A stretch of DNA of 63,887 bases from a virus (taxonomy: Duplodnaviria; Caudoviricetes), in the IMG/VR virus record IMGVR_UViG_3300027659_000033, positions 1-63,887 of that record. One strand, written 5' to 3'. This document shows, piece by piece, positions 3,133 to 34,552 of this stretch. Every line of letters starts with the position of its first letter. Position 1 is the first letter of the stretch. The notes beneath the pieces are model-generated. The model was given only the letters and a program-made list of their open reading frames with translations. It searched no databases and was not told the origin of the DNA. The position numbers were made by a program, and so were the translations under genes.

Positions 3133-3819
3133 TTACCGACTAATAATTAATTTTCTTAAGCCATTTATCAAAGCTATGACAAATTTAGTACTCGTTGGTC
3201 CAGGCCATGGAAAACTTAATCCAATTACTCCAGTAGCAAATAACAATAACAGTCGCGTGCCATCTGTGCCAGCAAAGAGTGTTGATAGCGCAAAATTTCC
3301 TGAAAGTGCAGACAGCACATCAGAAAAGTCAAAGTCATAATGAAAGTCACCCGTAAATGACATATTCATCCAAATGTAGATTAACATACCCGCAACGGCA
3401 ACTCCAGCAATTTTCTTTAGTTTTGGATGATTTTGTAACCAGTCGTCAAGACCACGTAGGGCCTCTTCTGTCCATCGACCAATCTTACTTTTAGCAATAT
3501 ATTCAGCAATAGCCTTTTGTACTTGAGCGTATGCAGCATAGCCAGCCTTTACTGATTTCCACAGTTTGTTTAAGTCAAAACGTATAGAACTAAAAAATTT
3601 AAAGACCCTCGAGTCTTTAAACATAGTTATAATTTCCTGAACATCTGCTTTGGCAGCACTTGCCAATGTTTGTATAAAATCTAACTTTGACCGCACACCA
3701 GCCGTTAGATTAGACAATATTCCTTCGTCTAGGCTATTAGACTCAAATATAGTTATTGCCGAATAGTAGTCTGCTTCTTCTTGAAGAGAGTCTACCGAGT
3801 ATTGATTAAAACTTTTCAT
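3133..3819 (-). CDS. Hypothetical membrane protein with capsid-targeting-like N-terminus
   Basis: MKSFNQY..LQE start; hydrophobic segments IAGVAVAGMLIYIWMNM and LLLLFATGVIGLSFPW. Confidence 0.6.
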   Translation of the reverse strand: MKSFNQYSVDSLQEEADYYSAITIFESNSLDEGILSNLTAGVRSKLDFIQTLASAAKADVQEIITMFKDSRVFKFFSSIRFDLNKLWKSVKAGYAAYAQVQKAIAEYIAKSKIGRWTEEALRGLDDWLQNHPKLKKIAGVAVAGMLIYIWMNMSFTGDFHYDFDFSDVLSALSGNFALSTLFAGTDGTRLLLLFATGVIGLSFPWPGPTSTKFVIALINGLRKLIISR

Positions 3820-4253
3820 GCTTTTTTCTTAACGTTACCAATACTGTATTTTGAACGAAGGTCCCAATTAAACTTATCTTTGTGAGAGATAATTTTAATT
3901 TGTTTTAGACTTGTGGTGTCTTTTGCATGATCACGATTAACAATTTCAAGCAGTCCCCAGTCAGAAAGAAGAAGAGTAATTGTATTACGCCTACACATAT
4001 CATCATGTGTAAACGTTGATGGCTTACCATCTAACATAAAGAGTTCTTTAAAATGTACAATAAAGTAGCGCCCCTGCTTGTGCAAGATATGGCAACTTTG
4101 AAAGAGTACATTTTCTTCTCGCTTGGAGGAGACACCAATGCGAGAAAGAGTTTCTTTAATTTTTAAAAAATCATCCGGGTCATTTAAATACACCTCAAGC
4201 ATTTGAGGTGGTGACCAGCTTATAATATCTGTATGGGAAAAATTGTCATTCAT
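3816..4253 (-). CDS. regA: Translational repressor RegA
   Basis: DDFLKIKETLSRIGV, LFQSCHILHKQGRYFIVHFKELF; synteny with gp62. Confidence 0.96.
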   Translation of the reverse strand: MNDNFSHTDIISWSPPQMLEVYLNDPDDFLKIKETLSRIGVSSKREENVLFQSCHILHKQGRYFIVHFKELFMLDGKPSTFTHDDMCRRNTITLLLSDWGLLEIVNRDHAKDTTSLKQIKIISHKDKFNWDLRSKYSIGNVKKKA

Positions 4254-4265
4254 GATGCGATATTA

Positions 4266-4273
4266 TATTTATA
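4266..4273 (-). promoter_or_regulatory. T4-type late promoter upstream of regA
   Basis: TATAAATA. Confidence 0.55.
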
Positions 4274-4279
4274 ATATCG

Positions 4280-4504
4280 TCATCGTTTACTTTTATTAAC
4301 TGATCTAGCCCGGCGCCCACGCTTATTCTTCGCCCGCATTTTTGCTACTCGCTTTGGAGACAAATTTTTCTTTCCGGTTGACATTCTAAATCCACCAGCC
4401 ATCATGCGCTTTATAAACTTTGCTGGATCAATCTGAAGTCTTTCGATTGGGGTGTCTGATAATACTTCAGCTTCAATTACTTTTTCGTGTGTTTCCTCCG
4501 ACAT
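4280..4504 (-). CDS. Hypothetical protein with a highly basic C-terminus
   Basis: Fills the gap between gp62 and regA; ends KRVAKMRAKNKRGRRARSVNKSKR. Confidence 0.6.
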   Translation of the reverse strand: MSEETHEKVIEAEVLSDTPIERLQIDPAKFIKRMMAGGFRMSTGKKNLSPKRVAKMRAKNKRGRRARSVNKSKR

Positions 4505-4925
4505 CTCTCTTGTTTTTTAGTTGTGTTAGTTGTGTTTGTGTAAATAGATGGAATACTGCTCGTGCTTTTTCAGCACTATAGGAGTATTCATCCATTATAC
4601 ATTTTATATATTCAGAATCATCTGACTTTTTTGCCCATTTACTAAAGCGTTTACGTGGGCGTATGCAATGTTTGAGAAAATCATATTGCATCTTATGTGG
4701 CAAGAATGCGCGTTGATTCATCTCATTTGCAAATAACACTGTATCATTAAAATAAGACAGGCCCCGATTGACTATAAACGGCACATATTGCTTGTCCAGG
4801 TTGTTATGGTCGAGGCCTTCGCTGTTGTCGGCGCGCGAGACCTCTAACAAATTTTTACCACTTTGACCTTCATTAATACTGTTAATAAAGTCAAATGGCG
4901 AGAGTTTTTTATTTTCTACACCCAT
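4473..4925 (-). CDS. gp62: Clamp loader small subunit
   Basis: SPFDFINSI, YVPFIVNRGLSYFNDTVLFANEMN, IRPRKRFSKW. Confidence 0.93.
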   Translation of the reverse strand: MGVENKKLSPFDFINSINEGQSGKNLLEVSRADNSEGLDHNNLDKQYVPFIVNRGLSYFNDTVLFANEMNQRAFLPHKMQYDFLKHCIRPRKRFSKWAKKSDDSEYIKCIMDEYSYSAEKARAVFHLFTQTQLTQLKNKRDVGGNTRKSN

Positions 4926-4957
4926 TCAATATTTCCCATTAGTTCTGTACGTTTCAT
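4916..4957 (-). CDS. 13-aa mini-ORF MKRTELMGNIEWV: orphaned original gp44 C-terminus, overlapping the gp62 start
   Basis: Manual translation; aligns with the current gp44 end TELLVNIEFK; ATG 6 nt after a TATAAT. Confidence 0.6.
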   Translation of the reverse strand: MKRTELMGNIEWV

Positions 4958-4963
4958 AATTGC

Positions 4964-4992
4964 ATTATAATATAGTTTTGTCATTTTGTAAA
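4964..4992 (-). promoter_or_regulatory. Early promoter driving the mini-ORF and gp62
   Basis: TTTACA-N17-TATAAT. Confidence 0.8.
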
Positions 4993-5002
4993 TAGAATTT
5001 TT

Positions 5003-5010
5003 TATAAATA
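5003..5010 (+). promoter_or_regulatory. Late promoter for the homing endonuclease
   Basis: TATAAATA on + strand, followed by an imperfect GC-rich hairpin (~5018-5049). Confidence 0.7.
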
Positions 5011-5076
5011 AAAGTATACCGACCGCGACATGTCCAGTGTCCGCCGGTTCTACACAGTACCAACTAAAGCACAATT

Positions 5077-5919
5077 ATGCAGCAATTAAAAATACTTATA
5101 CCTAAAGGATTGTCATGTACATCACCATTCTTCTATATCATCAAACACAAACTTAGCGAAAAATTATACGCTGGTTATTGTTCTTCACAGAAACATTGTA
5201 ACTCATCTAAGTTTATGTCTGAATATGGATATAAAACTTCATCTAAATATGTTAAAGAATTAATTAATAAAGATGGATTGACTTCATTTGAAATTATTAG
5301 AATTAGACATTTCCCAACCAGTTGTGATGCTATCAATTATGAATCGAGATTTCTTCATAAGATTAATGCAATGCATAATAATATTTTTATAAATCAAAAT
5401 AATGGTGGAAAAGAATTTAGATGTAAAGGGCATACTAAAGAATCTAGGGATAAAATGGGATTATCTAGGAAAGGATTAACACACTCTGATGAAACCAAAT
5501 TAAAAATGTCGATTTCTGGTAAAAAAAGATTTGAAGAAAACCCCGTGACAGATAAAACTAAGAAACTTTTATCTATTGCGATGAAAGGTAAAATAACATC
5601 AGATGAGACCAAGATGAAAATTAGTATTGCTGGTAAGGGGCGAGTAACTTCAGATGAAACTAAAAATAAACTTAGTATTAAACGAAAAGGAAAAAGGGGT
5701 CATTCCCAAACACAAGATACTAGGAGAAAACTCGCTGAAGCTGGCAGAAAAAGAAAAGGTGAAAAGCGATCAAGTATTACTAAACAAAGAATATCTGAAA
5801 AATGTAAGGGACGGCGATGGTGGAATGACGGCAGTAGTGTTAAAAGCTCTGTTGATTGCCCAGGTGAAGGTTGGTCATTAGGTAGGATGAAAGCATATGG
5901 ATGTGCTGCGAGAAATTAG
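5077..5919 (+). mobile_element. Free-standing GIY-YIG-like (Seg-type) homing endonuclease with NUMOD3 repeats
   Basis: FFYIIKH...LYAG N-domain; repeated (H/T)SDETKxKxS; C-terminal RWWNDG..CPGEGWSLGR; antisense to its neighbours. Confidence 0.85.
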
Positions 5920-5927
5920 AATATAAC

Positions 5928-6869
5928 TTATTTAAACTCAATATTCACTAGTAATTCGGTCATACATGCAACCATATTCAGCTCCTTGTCAGCCATAAAA
6001 CCGGACTTATAAGAATAGTCAGCGAGAATAAGAACTGCGGACGGAATGGATGAAGGAGCAACAACATCATACAACGAATCATATAGCTTACGAAATACGA
6101 CTGCACTGTCGAGTGTGCTGTTGTTAACAACCCATGATCTCATAGACTTAAAGTCTTTGGCTTTGAGGTGACGAGCCAATTCAGCAATGCTTTGATCTGA
6201 CATTCCAACCAAGATTGCAGTTGGAATCTCGCCGCTTGTGCTGTATCGTTGACACTCATTAAGTACTCGTCTCCAGTCTGGAGCATAGCGAATAATCAAC
6301 TCTGCAAGCGTTTGTTCATGATATTTGACACCTTCAGTCTTAAGAATAAACATTAGGCGCTTCATAAAGTCTCCGGCGAGAGATGCCAATGACTTTTTAG
6401 TAGTGTTAAACTCAATTACCGAACACCTACTATGTAGTGGTTCAATAATCTTGTTTTTAAAGTTACATGTTAAGATAAATCTACAATTGTTACTAAACTC
6501 TTCAATAAACCCACGAAGTGCAGGCATTGTGCTTTGTGGATTGAGATAATCAGCCTCGTCGAGAATAACTACCTTATACCCTCCATTCAATGACACTGTT
6601 GAAGCAAACTGCTTAATCTTATTTCGCAAGACGTCAATACCACTCTCTTCAGAGCCATTGATTAGTATATAATCAAGGTTCAATTCCGCGCATAGCGCGC
6701 GGGCAACAGTGGTTTTCCCCAGTCCAGCGGAACCCGCCAACAATAGGTTAGGGAGTTGACCTCCCTGTACCATTTCGTTAAACGTTTTCTTTAGTTCCGC
6801 TGGGAGAACACATTCATCAATCTTTTGCGGTCTGTATTTTTCGACCCATACCCACTCATCAGTTTTCAT
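5928..6869 (-). CDS. gp44: Clamp loader large subunit (AAA+)
   Basis: WVEKYRP, GSAGLGKTT, ILDEADYL, SRC motif. Confidence 0.96.
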   Translation of the reverse strand: MKTDEWVWVEKYRPQKIDECVLPAELKKTFNEMVQGGQLPNLLLAGSAGLGKTTVARALCAELNLDYILINGSEESGIDVLRNKIKQFASTVSLNGGYKVVILDEADYLNPQSTMPALRGFIEEFSNNCRFILTCNFKNKIIEPLHSRCSVIEFNTTKKSLASLAGDFMKRLMFILKTEGVKYHEQTLAELIIRYAPDWRRVLNECQRYSTSGEIPTAILVGMSDQSIAELARHLKAKDFKSMRSWVVNNSTLDSAVVFRKLYDSLYDVVAPSSIPSAVLILADYSYKSGFMADKELNMVACMTELLVNIEFK

Positions 6870-6880
6870 ATATGACTATA

Positions 6881-7135
6881 TTATACCAAAGTGATTTGTT
6901 TGTACACACTTTTAATTTCTGCAGCTTCATTTTCAAACTGAGCTGCAGTTTTCTTATGGTATAATTTAGCAACCTTGCGAATTAGCGGTTTTGGCAAATC
7001 AAAGGCGTCTGCAGTTGCAGAAATAATTTCTTTGATAGCATCTCGGCTGTCATCCATTTTAGATAGTTCATCCGAGATTTCGCGAATTGCGCCAAGCAAC
7101 TCCATTTTAGTCTTATCGTCTTCAATTTCAATCAT
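6881..7135 (-). CDS. dsbA: dsDNA-binding protein, DsbA-like
   Basis: PKPLIRKVAKLYHKKTAAQFENE resembles the T4 DsbA C-terminal half. Confidence 0.7.
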   Translation of the reverse strand: MIEIEDDKTKMELLGAIREISDELSKMDDSRDAIKEIISATADAFDLPKPLIRKVAKLYHKKTAAQFENEAAEIKSVYKQITLV

Positions 7136-7141
7136 AATATA

Positions 7142-7375
7142 TTATTTTTCCCCAAAATATAGCGCATATGCAATAAATACCGCACACACCCAAAAACCCA
7201 ATGCATAGATAAAGGTCATGATGGGACTGTTGGCCCGTCTCTTAGACGACGCTACACCTGCCATTCCGCCCTTGGGATTCATGTATTGTAACCACAGCAG
7301 CGCTCTTCCAGGAAACGCAAATAGTTCATATAGAATGCTGCCGCCACCAGTCCCATCAAGCCTATCTTTTGCCAT
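7142..7375 (-). CDS. Hypothetical small membrane protein
   Basis: C-terminal hydrophobic helix FIYALGFWVCAVFIAYALYF. Confidence 0.65.
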   Translation of the reverse strand: MAKDRLDGTGGGSILYELFAFPGRALLWLQYMNPKGGMAGVASSKRRANSPIMTFIYALGFWVCAVFIAYALYFGEK

Positions 7376-7687: not shown

Positions 7688-8359
7688 TTATTTAAATGTT
7701 GAAGTTTTTTCCAGAGCAATATAGTATTGAACTGGAATGATTTCGTTTTTCCAGTGGCTGATAAGCTTAGACGAAATATTCACCACATAGTCTCCTGGAA
7801 GCACTTTAAGATTATTAATCAAAAATTGCAGGTCAAAGGAGCCACGCTGAGAGTTATTTTCGTCTAGCACCACTGAAAATGTATTTGCTGAAGAGTTTTT
7901 GGGATCAACAACAGAAAGAGTAACGACACCATCTTCGCCTTGTAACGAAACAATCGAATGCCCAAGCACACCAGCGGCCTTGCGGACCTGAGTTAGGAGC
8001 TCGGAAGTAATGTTTACCGTCAGGTCGCCTTGCGGCATATTAATCTTATTTTTAGGACTCGTAAGAATACTCTGATCAGCAAAACGATAGGACGCGCGAG
8101 TACGGCCAGACTTAAATTGTACACTATCATTAGTAAATTCAAGGTCTGGGTCTTGTAGCAACGAGAACATCGAAATAAATTCATTTAGGTCATAGATGCC
8201 AAAATCAGTAGAAAATTGTTCTGTAATTTCTGCAATTGCCATAATATTCTTGGCTTCAGAAATTGTAGAGAGAGGTTCGCCGGTCTTTACGACAAGATTA
8301 GAATTAATGCCTGAAAAATTCTTTAGAATATCAATTGTTTGAGAGGATAGTTTAGTCAT
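7688..8359 (-). CDS. gp45: Sliding clamp
   Basis: MTKLSSQTIDILKNFSGINSNL, FGIYDLNEF, YYIALE. Confidence 0.96.
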   Translation of the reverse strand: MTKLSSQTIDILKNFSGINSNLVVKTGEPLSTISEAKNIMAIAEITEQFSTDFGIYDLNEFISMFSLLQDPDLEFTNDSVQFKSGRTRASYRFADQSILTSPKNKINMPQGDLTVNITSELLTQVRKAAGVLGHSIVSLQGEDGVVTLSVVDPKNSSANTFSVVLDENNSQRGSFDLQFLINNLKVLPGDYVVNISSKLISHWKNEIIPVQYYIALEKTSTFK

Positions 8360-15447: not shown

Positions 15448-16055
15448 TGTATAAAGTTATCGAGGGCACCAACCTTTTCAGATTGGATTTTAGCCTTTTT
15501 CTTAGCACGTGGTTTTTCAACCACTTCAACAGATTCAACCAACTCATTGCTTTCTTTATAAAAGGCATCGTTACGTTGACGCATCTTTTCGATAAGCGAC
15601 TCTCCATAGTCAGAGCCATCTTCAAACTCTGCAAAGTTTCCAATTCCACCGCTCTCAATTAGCAGCTGTTTAATATTAGTCTGTTTCTTTTCTTTTGCTA
15701 TACGTCGTAAAAATGCATACCAAGAGATTTGGGTAAAATATGAAAACGCATTTGGAGTACCAGTCCGGGTTGGTTTATTAATGTCGTAATTCATAATAGC
15801 CTTGATGCAATTTTCAACTGCATCCATAACCATATCTTCACGATAACTGTAATTTACAAAGTTACCACTACGAGACAACCCGTTCGTGATTTTCATAAAA
15901 CATTCACCAATATAATTGGTAATTTGTCGAGGTTCTCTGCCCTCATCCTTGTCGAGATTTACAGCACTCACATATTCGACGACCGCTGCAGAAAACTCTT
16001 TATTATTAACATAGTCATCACCGCGTGACCGTCGCTTTTGCTTTTCAGGTTTCAT
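15444..16055 (-). CDS. gp55: Late-transcription sigma factor
   Basis: YVNNKEF, YIGECFMKI, NFVNYSYREDMVMDAVENC, NAFSYFTQI..AFLRRIAKEKKQ. Confidence 0.95.
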   Translation of the reverse strand: MKPEKQKRRSRGDDYVNNKEFSAAVVEYVSAVNLDKDEGREPRQITNYIGECFMKITNGLSRSGNFVNYSYREDMVMDAVENCIKAIMNYDINKPTRTGTPNAFSYFTQISWYAFLRRIAKEKKQTNIKQLLIESGGIGNFAEFEDGSDYGESLIEKMRQRNDAFYKESNELVESVEVVEKPRAKKKAKIQSEKVGALDNFIQ

Positions 16056-32148: not shown

Positions 32149-33765
32149 TTACAAGGCATTCCATTCTTGTAGTGCTGATACCTGCCGTTCATAGTCAACC
32201 ATACTAGGGGTACTACTAGAAACAGGACTGTCGAATATGCCAAACGGAGGCAAGTCTTCTTCCATTTCGCGTATCTTTTCGCTGTAGAGCAGCGATTTTA
32301 ATTCAATATTACTGAGTCCTCCAAATGCATCTGTGCTCACAAACCAAGCAAAAAGCACGAGGTTCATAACCATGTCGTCATGGGTGTTTCCACGAGCAGC
32401 ATAGCTGTCTCCCTTTGGCTCAAAACTACTAAGTTCAACTATTGTGTCTGGGTCACATAATTGAAGCTTGCCACTTTCAAGCAAGTCTTTTAAATTACTA
32501 CACCCAATACGTTTTACGCGTTTTGTCATAGTAACCCCAATACCGCTACTCTTTACAGCACTTTGCACAAACGTATTGTCATATTCATAGTCATAGTAGA
32601 TTGCATTACAAACAACCTGACCAGCATCATTATTTTCAACTATTACAAGTGCTTCATTATACGTCTTTGCCGCACGAACAATAAATTCTGGAAACATAAG
32701 TGGAGACACTAGGTTGTCTCGATATGTGCACACTTGTTTAAACGCGCCATCGACTCCAGATATATTAAATATTGTAAAGGTACTATAGTCTTGACCACGA
32801 CCTTTACTAACATCAACCGTCATTATATAGTCATGACCTTCAACTGGTTCAGCATAATATCGTATGCCATGTTGTAGTTGTAATGGTTCATGTGACTGCA
32901 ATCCTAATAGCGTGTCTGAACCTATTAGTGTCTGCGAACTGCCAATAAAGTTTACTTCAAATTCTTGGCGAAATTGAAGTTCGCTACTGTTTGCAATAGT
33001 CTGACGTTTCCATTCATCGTCACGACCTGGCACATCATTCCAACGAATAGTAAACGGTTTAAACTCATTTGTAGCCTGTATTGCGCCTTCCCAAAGCTTA
33101 TAAAACATATTACCAATTCCATTAGGTGTGCTAGTAATAATAACCTTTGTGTCTTTACCAGATGAAATAACAGGATAAACTCCGGTATAAAATGCACTAG
33201 CATTATCAACAAATGCAAACTCATCAAGAAACAAAAGTGATATACTCATACCACGAATACTTGAGCTTGAAGTTGCTGCGCAAATAATTCGTGAGTTATT
33301 TGAAAAGTCGATATTTCCTTTATTTAATGCTTTACACCCCGGTTGCAACCAAAATGGAAGATTTTCAAGCATTAGACATATGCGAGACAACATTTCACGC
33401 GCAGTTGCTCCCTTGTTAGCCAAGATTGCAATTGTTTTTTCGCTATGAAAAAGTGCATACCAAAGCAAATAACCACATGTTGAAATTGATTTGCCGCTTT
33501 GGCGGCAAGCTAATATTATATTAAACCTATGTGAATTATAGTGTTGAAATATTTCTCTTTGATATCCATATAACTTAAATGGTACCAAGCCACGATCTAA
33601 ATGAATAACTTTCAAATAGGTTTCACAAAAATAAATTGGATCTTTACTGCACTTGATATATTCATCAATTTGCTCTTTTGTAAAGTTAATGTTAACACCA
33701 TCACGCTTTACATTGGGATTTCCAAGATATCCATTTTCTTTGGTCTTTTGATGATCAACAATCAT
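32149..33765 (-). CDS. gp17: Terminase large subunit
   Basis: YLGNPNVK, RQSGKS, LFLDEFAFV, TSTPNG, HDDMVM. Confidence 0.97.
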   Translation of the reverse strand: MIVDHQKTKENGYLGNPNVKRDGVNINFTKEQIDEYIKCSKDPIYFCETYLKVIHLDRGLVPFKLYGYQREIFQHYNSHRFNIILACRQSGKSISTCGYLLWYALFHSEKTIAILANKGATAREMLSRICLMLENLPFWLQPGCKALNKGNIDFSNNSRIICAATSSSSIRGMSISLLFLDEFAFVDNASAFYTGVYPVISSGKDTKVIITSTPNGIGNMFYKLWEGAIQATNEFKPFTIRWNDVPGRDDEWKRQTIANSSELQFRQEFEVNFIGSSQTLIGSDTLLGLQSHEPLQLQHGIRYYAEPVEGHDYIMTVDVSKGRGQDYSTFTIFNISGVDGAFKQVCTYRDNLVSPLMFPEFIVRAAKTYNEALVIVENNDAGQVVCNAIYYDYEYDNTFVQSAVKSSGIGVTMTKRVKRIGCSNLKDLLESGKLQLCDPDTIVELSSFEPKGDSYAARGNTHDDMVMNLVLFAWFVSTDAFGGLSNIELKSLLYSEKIREMEEDLPPFGIFDSPVSSSTPSMVDYERQVSALQEWNAL

Positions 33766-34552
33766 ATTGTTGTTTTAATTCAATTAATTTATTATTTAAA
33801 AACTCATCGTCTTTAACTGACCAACCAGATCCTAATTTCACGTTATATTGTTTACAAATTTGTCTAATTTCTAATACTACAGGCCTATTAGTCTTTTGTT
33901 GACGAATTACATTTCTTTTTTCTTGTGATATTTTACCTATTGTATTTTTCCAATGCGGCGATAATTTTGTTTTGCTGCATCGTATAGCAGCTAATTTATT
34001 ATCTCTATTTTGTGCTGCCTTTATCGATCGAGGTTTTGCAACATTCTTTCTCCATTCAGAGTCAGCCATGGTATTTTTCATTTTTTCAATACCCCTTATC
34101 CATTTGGTATTTCTCCATTCCCCGTTGTTATATCGTTGAAAAGCTTTATTTCGTATTTTATCGATTACTCCAGGCACATAATTTGCGTTCGTCACGCTAT
34201 ATTTATCCAATAATAATTGGGAATATTCTAATGTTCCAAACGAAGGACATCGTAAATCATTATTGTGACAATTATAAAAATTTATATTGTATGCTGCATT
34301 AATTTTTTTAAGAAATCTAGTCTCATACTGATATGCGCTATGAGAACACGTAAAAATTTTAATTTTTCTAATAATAAATGAATCTAATCCTTCTTTTTCT
34401 ATAATTTTATTAATTATAGGCGATGACGTAGTATATCCGTTGGATGTTAATAATGTTTTTGGATCGCTGTCATCCTTTGAATATTTGCTGCCAGCATAGT
34501 ATTTTTTAGTAATAATATGCTGTATTATATAAAAATATGGAATTGCAGTCAT
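33755..34552 (-). mobile_element. Free-standing GIY-YIG-like homing endonuclease between gp16 and gp17
   Basis: PYFYIIQH..KYYAG..YTTSS..YETRFL..INA..FYN; N-domain homologous to 5077..5919; basic C-terminal half. Confidence 0.75.

Follow-up and report, generated by a model that had tools for sequence, protein, structure and literature searches.

In a genome fragment of an uncultured freshwater T4-like phage (IMG/VR record IMGVR_UViG_3300027659_000033), the clamp-loader genes 44 and 62 are parted by a segment, at 4949-5951, that carries an antisense homing endonuclease gene (HEG). The window here means the whole stretch analysed, 63,887 nt (63.9 kb) and ~35% complete. The best explanation of the whole arrangement is a mobile GIY-YIG/NUMOD3 cassette that repairs both of the clamp-loader genes it entered, and we put the probability of this explanation at about 0.7. 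The cassette lies in what was the tail of gene 44; gp44 now ends in a cassette-supplied substitute, and the ancestral tail persists on the far side of the endonuclease gene as a stub that overlaps the start of gp62 (Table 1). An initial annotation of this DNA had proposed a self-repairing insertion, and the gp44 end, stub, gp62 ATG, promoter, ATG AAA CGT start and late motif that it quoted were all correctly read and placed; the structural and evolutionary part of its interpretation is fully supported by the sequence comparisons described here, and the functional part, on cleavage immunity and coupling to gp62, is plausible.

The insertion is evident from relatives in which the site is empty. 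An IMG/VR scan with gp44 returned 596 relatives, the best 80 of which were kept; together with two named-phage loci these gave 82 related loci, none of which encodes the endonuclease. The closest relatives (94-95% gp44 identity) end gp44 in CMTELMGNIEWV and a stop codon, letter for letter the stub of the window, and their gp62 ATG lies within the E-W codons of gp44, a 10-nt overlap. For an allele census we used a 30-mer at the gp62 start, which retrieved 10 contigs and, with the window, 11 alleles: two are occupied and nine empty, a presence/absence polymorphism at one and the same site. The single occupied census contig, L084, was also retrieved as L087, L103, and L130. Six of the nine HEG-free alleles end in TELMGNIEWV, bearing out the expectation that a HEG-free gp44 would end in the stub sequence and overlap gp62; the other three are hybrids ending in TELLVNIEWV. 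The contrary pattern, HEG-free relatives with an EFK tail and no stub, was looked for and found in 0/9 alleles. In the window, the gp62 ATG (4925-4923) and the TAG that ends the stub (4918-4916) both fall inside this second tail copy. The two 33-nt copies have 20/33 bases in common and differ at 13/33, and the repeat is weak evidence by itself; judged against the relatives it lies beyond chance, because HEG-free phages end their gp44 in precisely this stub sequence.

On the other side of the endonuclease gene, gp44 of the window ends in CMTELLVNIEFK and a stop (the 33 bases quoted in the initial annotation are 5960-5928). This tail replaces the ancestral one with four altered residues, MG to LV and WV to FK, and with E-F in place of E-W the internal gp62 ATG is gone from this copy. 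The proposal of a cassette-borne gp44 C-terminus thus holds, but the term recoded does not, as the changes are not synonymous. Insertion ahead of the gp44 stop also stands, although the suggested distance of about 10 codons needs correction: L084 retains the original junction, 12 sense codons before the stop, with 12 extra ancestral bases (MKRTECMTELMGNIEWV before the stop), and the window has lost these 12 nt in frame. Natural tails place the substitute in context. Among 78 parsable gp44 tails, drawn from the best 80 of the 596 relatives' loci, 77 have M directly after TE[LVI] and 77 have A, S, or G one position further on; L and V at these positions are confined to one HEG-linked hybrid allele, L005 (1/78). 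The FK ending is the second commonest natural tail (14/78), and the WV ending of the host clade is rare (4/78). In a BLAST of both cassette arms against all loci and the window, matches were in HEG-occupied loci alone, with one exception: the opening 15 nt of the left arm also occur in the hybrid alleles, as their LV patch.

Comparison of the two occupied alleles demonstrates that the cassette has spread horizontally. The window and L084 are 82.0% identical (731/892) in the left flank, within the gp44 body, and 82.8% identical (452/546) in the right flank, in gp62 and beyond; identity rises to 97.0% in the block 4882-5975 and to 97.9% in the cassette alone. Short runs of complete identity extend from the cassette into both flanks (Table 1), and if sites are assumed to be independent the chance of such runs is ~4e-6 (0.83^67) on the right and ~0.009 (0.82^24) on the left. 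Because the HEG-free clade has this right tract as well, the window lineage got the cassette and its flanks from that clade. The endonuclease gene has a GC content of 32.3% and the cassette one of 32%, compared to 41% in gp44. Taken together, these sequence comparisons make the insertion and transfer of the cassette close to certain.

We also aligned to the stretch contigs from four further public metagenome runs, X2-X5, each from another lake study. Contigs of X4 span both junctions, those of X2 and X3 the right junction, and an X5 contig the left junction. The flanks are ~18% diverged in X2 and X3 and are diverged in X4, and X5 is the window's own strain; the occupied allele is therefore present in several backgrounds, 2020-2025. 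In all, 16 public studies contain the stretch or part of it, and no RNA run was listed among those that do. None of the contigs covering the junctions has an indel at the mini-ORF upstream of gp62 or at 5691 in the endonuclease gene, and no contig joint across the cassette was found in X2-X5; an X4 joint from 5275 to 5920, with a 24-nt side, was taken as coming from another organism. An assembly chimera, which would make the whole arrangement an artefact, is excluded for practical purposes because contigs of independent studies bridge the junctions, and a second IMG/VR contig has the same ones.

The gene at the center of the cassette codes for a 280-residue protein with the hallmarks of a free-standing homing endonuclease. 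Its NUMOD3 DNA-binding repeats score above the Pfam cut-off (5e-10), and it matches PHROG_314, annotated as homing endonuclease, at 1.8e-15. In an alignment of 14 sequences (13 relatives and the window protein) Y20, Y31, G33, E89, and N106 are invariant, and a profile of this alignment, which itself includes canonical members, matches I-TevI (1LN0) at 3e-11. Among the folds matched by an AlphaFold model with pLDDT of 70-91 over residues 18-108, I-TevI (1MK0/1LN0) ranks first (E 1.5e-3, probability 1.00) and the GIY-YIG domain of UvrC comes next. The 14 relatives of the endonuclease found in metagenome_contigs are all ≤49% identical, and none is at the gp44/gp62 site. The gene is antisense to gp44, which has its own stop codon, and no intron-like RNA matched Rfam at E values up to 1 over positions 4300-7000; an intron or ribozyme is rejected on this search, in agreement with the initial proposal that no splicing is involved. 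A search for an I-TevI-style operator, comparing the homing site to the region upstream of the endonuclease gene, gave no similarity (359/500 shuffles score at least as well).

A second GIY-YIG endonuclease gene (33755-34552, minus strand, 265 aa) is present elsewhere in the window. This paralog is in the sense orientation and overlaps both of its late-operon neighbors; the proteins are 31-36% identical, with 36% over the nuclease domain (E 3e-22) and a different C-terminal part. Ahead of the cassette endonuclease there is a 19-codon upstream open reading frame (ORF; 5030-5089, plus strand) that starts 20 nt past the late-promoter motif and overlaps the endonuclease ATG out of frame by 13 nt, and it could couple or throttle translation of the endonuclease.

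The right arm of the cassette carries two promoter motifs back to back. The T4-type late motif TATAAATA occurs in only two plus-strand copies in the 63.9 kb, one of them directed toward the endonuclease gene. On the minus strand, which is the coding strand, 9/20 copies lie 0-12 nt before gene ATGs, versus 0.24 expected; the motif supports late expression of the endonuclease. Facing the other way, toward gp62, the early-type promoter TTTACA-N17-TATAAT is the sole 11/12 sigma-70 match in 3700-7300, a region in which sigma-70-like matches as a class are not enriched (15 versus 13.1 expected). It is present in both HEG-occupied alleles, and none of TATAAT, TATAAATA, or TTTACA/TTGACA is found within 400 nt upstream of gp62 in 9/9 HEG-free alleles. 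Since such motifs are lacking there, the cassette has genuinely added a promoter, as the initial annotation had claimed, and it is of the phage's own early type.

This match to the design of the phage is seen throughout the window. There are 66 TATAAT copies on the coding strand, 10 of which are 0-12 nt before a called ATG (0.78 expected), and of TTTACA-N16-18-TATAAT sites the coding strand has six, the opposite strand zero; three of the six are 6-11 nt before gene starts (gp45, 12559, and 16055). A Shine-Dalgarno-like motif precedes just 3/58 genes. Window-wide, TATAAT or TATAAATA stands 0-12 nt before 19 gene ATGs on the minus strand, with ~1 expected. Gene starts in the window look leaderless from this arrangement, and the scarcity of Shine-Dalgarno motifs, not the rule in T4-type phages, may reflect a host whose translation initiation is SD-independent. 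In the cassette, the gap between TATAAT and the ATG of the mini-ORF is 6 nt, as at the resident gene start at 16055, and a transcript is predicted to start at or beside the A of that ATG. The cassette looks like it carries a standard early gene start of this phage group, and we consider the promoter rather more probably in use than idle.

The ATG so placed opens a frame that runs through the stub and stops 5 nt past the gp62 ATG, and it is in frame in both sequenced HEG-occupied alleles despite the 12-nt indel. Its 5′ region is unstructured (197/200 shuffles fold at least as well). In T4 itself, the primary paper on coupling of genes 44 and 62 is reportedly that of Torgov et al. 1998. The mini-ORF may be translated from a leaderless start, and that its coupling to gp62 matters for expression of the latter is a possibility to which we give a little less than even odds. 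The GC-rich hairpin between the late motif and the endonuclease gene is, with low confidence, a weak candidate terminator for read-through from gp44, or a structure in the leader of the endonuclease mRNA.

The LV residues at the presumed target can be traced in the empty alleles. The six empty alleles with MG form two synonymous haplotypes of three contigs each, and the hybrid alleles differ from one of these by just four changed bases within 6 nt, the 105-nt haplotypes being otherwise identical; the pattern points to a single imported LV patch. The patch is present without an endonuclease in three contigs, one of them a genome of 97% completeness that lacks any close copy of the gene. Two origins of the hybrids fit: loss of the cassette by recombination between the two tail copies at a shared 8-nt core, or partial co-conversion. 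It may be instead that LV is an older natural polymorphism of gp44, that the cassette merely entered or recombined with it, and that it has no tie to immunity. Three of the nine HEG-free alleles do have LV on the left-flank haplotype of the HEG-free MG alleles, and the flank haplotypes do not tell whether the hybrids descend from HEG-occupied alleles or the reverse. We nevertheless find an older polymorphism unlikely, since four changes in 6 nt between otherwise identical haplotypes point to a single import, none of the other lineages among the 78 tails has L and V, and both HEG-occupied alleles have LV, inside the co-converted tract in the window. That the LV patch confers immunity to cleavage, as the cassette interpretation suggests, is to us an evenly balanced proposition. 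The two empty MG haplotypes (L100/L104/L105 and L099/L101/L108) are split by three synonymous markers in the last 60 nt of gp44, and one shares the three markers with the left copy of the cassette, the other with the stub; the haplotype sharing markers with the left copy may be a co-conversion footprint of the cassette.

We propose the following course of events. The cassette inserted into the last 13 codons of gp44, which overlap the start codon of gp62, where there is no intergenic space at all. Its left arm completes gp44 with LVNIEFK and a stop, altering two near-invariant codons at the presumed target and dropping the internal gp62 ATG. The right arm has a late promoter toward the endonuclease and, in the opposite direction, an early-type promoter whose transcript should begin at an ATG; this ATG opens the 13-codon frame through the old gp44 tail, ending 5 nt past the gp62 ATG. 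In this way gp62 would keep its own initiation region and a ribosome terminating upstream of it, much as when gp44 and gp62 still overlapped. Late in infection, the enzyme would cleave the HEG-free alleles that co-infecting relatives bring, and repair would copy the whole cassette with very short flanks. A more ambitious version of the idea casts the cassette as an expression-repair kit, in which the stub, far from being a dead scar, is translated from its leaderless start so that terminating ribosomes still reach the start codon of gp62, and LV makes occupied alleles uncuttable and outlives the endonuclease as a resistant HEG-free footprint. We offer this version tentatively, at distinctly less than even odds.

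Several observations weigh against these interpretations, and the first group concerns the enzyme. The Pfam GIY-YIG match is below threshold (E 0.006; 17.3 bits versus 22.6). The conserved arginine between the GIY and YIG motifs, Arg27 in I-TevI, is not evident in the window protein or in its paralog, though a lysine is nearby; most relatives have R or KR in that stretch. In L084 the endonuclease gene has a +1 frameshift (an extra A in an A-run, opposite ~5691) that truncates the protein after ~205 residues and may be real decay or a homopolymer error; because of it, present-day endonuclease activity is not assured. The frameshift and the arginine that is not evident suggest that the enzyme could be inactive now, the cassette having spread by ordinary homologous recombination and hitch-hiking alone. 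This seems improbable to us, given that the ORF is intact in the window and that X2, X3, and X4 contigs have no indel at 5691, and the very short co-converted flanks, with 97-98% identity across 82% backgrounds, fit recent break-driven transfer. As to the source of the left arm, no gp44 with the whole LVNIEFK tail was found outside the cassette in viral_contigs, where a degenerate pattern covering this tail and a stop gave eight matches, one being the HEG-occupied contig and seven chance occurrences, without gp44 by tblastn.

The second group concerns expression. The gap of 66 nt between the late motif and the endonuclease ATG is atypical, resident late motifs usually standing 5-7 nt away. With just two HEG-occupied alleles legible at base level, the conserved promoter and mini-ORF are weak evidence, and an indel has a 1 in 3 chance of being in frame. 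In 17/76 more distant relatives, accessory genes fill 0.3-1.9 kb between gp44 and gp62; coupling to gp44 itself is for that reason not a family-wide need. The stub and mini-ORF could then be a neutral scar, with gp62 initiating directly on transcripts from the cassette promoter or on gp44 read-through, and ATG AAA CGT being a chance start or one inherited from a former neighbor gene. Relatives whose gp62 works without the gp44 overlap favor a scar, as do the genes of this phage, the majority, that start without a Shine-Dalgarno motif, a stub already 12 nt shorter in the window, and a frame that is open for 52 codons upstream, so that being in frame is not special. However, the promoter-ATG spacing is that of resident gene starts, the 12-nt loss was in frame, contigs of three further backgrounds have no indel at the mini-ORF, and a leaderless ATG at a transcript start would be translated anyway. 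We take the scar to be a serious contender that falls clearly short of being the probable one.

Table 1. Features of the gp44-gp62 region and its neighbors in the window (positions in the window; strand given where it applies)
Feature	Position	Strand	Basis or remark
regA	3816-4253	-	Pfam
gp62, clamp-loader small subunit, 150 aa	4473-4925	-	Pfam Phage_clamp_A 2.3e-14; PHROG_225 9e-41
Right co-converted flank, 67 nt identical to L084 and the HEG-free clade	4882-4948	-	First flank difference at 4881
Leftover ancestral gp44 tail TELMGNIEWV and stop (mini-ORF body)	4916-4948	-	Identical to gp44 end of HEG-free L003/L006/L108
Mini-ORF start ATG AAA CGT (13-codon frame)	4949-4957	-	In frame with stub; only in HEG-occupied loci
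Cassette early-type promoter TTTACA (4992-4987)-N17-TATAAT (4969-4964)	4964-4992	-	11/12 sigma-70 match
T4-type late-promoter motif TATAAATA	5003-5010	+	66 nt upstream of endonuclease ATG; back to back with early promoter
GC-rich hairpin, U-rich stretch after it on minus strand	5014-5053		-17.4 kcal/mol, z -0.71 (also -1.28); not called by terminator scan
Free-standing homing endonuclease gene, 280 aa, N-terminal GIY-YIG and NUMOD3 repeats	5077-5919	+	Profiles, alignment, model
8-nt spacer between convergent stops of gp44 and endonuclease gene	5920-5927		
Substitute gp44 tail LVNIEFK and TAA stop (last 8 codons, cassette-supplied)	5928-5951	-	Comparison with relatives' tails
gp44, clamp-loader large subunit, 313 aa	5928-6869	-	Pfam AAA 1e-16, Gp44_lid 3.5e-07; residues 1-312 align with relatives
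Left co-converted flank, 24 nt identical to L084	5952-5975	-	First flank difference at 5976
dsbA-like gene	6881-7135	-	Pfam
gp45	7688-8359	-	Pfam

The T4-type replication genes are all on the minus strand of the window. By gp44 protein the nearest named phages are C48C1 (64%) and the Melnitz phages (60%), both Kyanoviridae, and a megablast of 4400-6900 against named phages gave just 3-4% coverage. Downstream of gp62, and overlapping its end by 32 nt, is a 74-aa Lys/Arg-rich ORF (4280-4504, minus strand) without a Pfam or PHROG match, whose position is kept in an alignment of close relatives. Among distant relatives the gp44-gp62 junction is a variable hotspot. It does not look like one for endonucleases in a scan of 13 of the longer sense-strand ORFs, from 67 gap ORFs listed in 17 loci: these are accessory genes, with a single sub-threshold HNH candidate among the 13, in L059. 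The gap genes of L038-L081 include those for a MazG-like protein, dCMP deaminase, 2OG-Fe(II) oxygenase, glutaredoxin, epimerase, peptidase, and methyltransferase.

On the usual view, a homing endonuclease spares its host by residing in an intron or intein or in an intergenic gap. The cassette described here would represent a third route in a phage, an element sitting at the overlap of two essential genes and carrying a gene tail, a host-type promoter, and a start codon with which both genes would stay expressed. If the repair-kit reading is true, a homing endonuclease can colonize a gene pair that is translationally coupled and has no spacer, and lake populations harbor every stage of the homing cycle side by side. 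Public lake metagenomes contain all four allele states, and it is therefore possible to measure in nature how the homing cycle runs, how large co-conversion tracts are, and how resistant alleles rise. The mini-ORF hypothesis also bears on how coupling is preserved in a phage largely without Shine-Dalgarno sites. In a limited full-text literature search we found no description of a phage cassette with a promoter and a restart frame.

Among known systems, the closest are the seg genes of T-even phages, free-standing GIY-YIG endonucleases for which intronless homing by SegF, SegG, and SegE is described in PMC2988022. Like them, the cassette has a GIY-YIG nuclease with a modular DNA-binding tail outside any intron, is present or absent at one site, shows co-converted flanking markers and late-promoter control, and has an essential replication gene as its target. 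The T4 seg genes are intergenic, whereas the cassette lies where two genes overlap and has to provide the end of one of them; its endonuclease is antisense to its neighbors and comes with a promoter that serves the host gene downstream. Gene-splitting insertions in phages, such as mobE in nrdA of Aeh1, mobA in 39/60 of T4, and a seg gene in gene 43 of phage 25, likewise put a free-standing endonuclease within an essential coding region and are tolerated without splicing, but they leave two polypeptides to reassemble (PMC2988022); gp44 of the window stays one full-length protein with a cassette-supplied end. Fractured genes with split inteins and a nested endonuclease (PMC2677866) are also coding-region insertions that bring their own repair device, in their case protein trans-splicing, whereas no splicing is needed or indicated for the cassette. 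T4 genes 44 and 62 are themselves described as translationally coupled in PMC2988022. The window resembles this arrangement in that gp62 starts within or at the end of an upstream frame, with a 10-nt overlap in HEG-free relatives, and differs from it in that the upstream frame is a 13-codon hybrid of cassette and stub rather than gp44.

The substitution of a gene end has its counterpart in fungal mitochondria, where mORFs form hybrids with atp6 in Allomyces and with atp6, atp9, cox2, and nad3 in Glomus, according to PMC3630166. There too the endonuclease brings a substitute C-terminus, and the native one stays downstream and matches that of endonuclease-free relatives. The mORFs run in the same direction as the gene, frequently in its frame, and leave a native tail that is dead or a merely transcribed relic; in the window, by contrast, the native tail overlaps the start of the next gene and has its own promoter and start codon, and the setting is a phage, not an organelle. 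Fungal mitochondria thus already offer examples of a gene-end swap; the novelty here lies in a stub that is reused, along with a promoter, where two genes overlap, and in seeing alleles that are empty, occupied, frameshifted, or reduced to a footprint within one set of populations.

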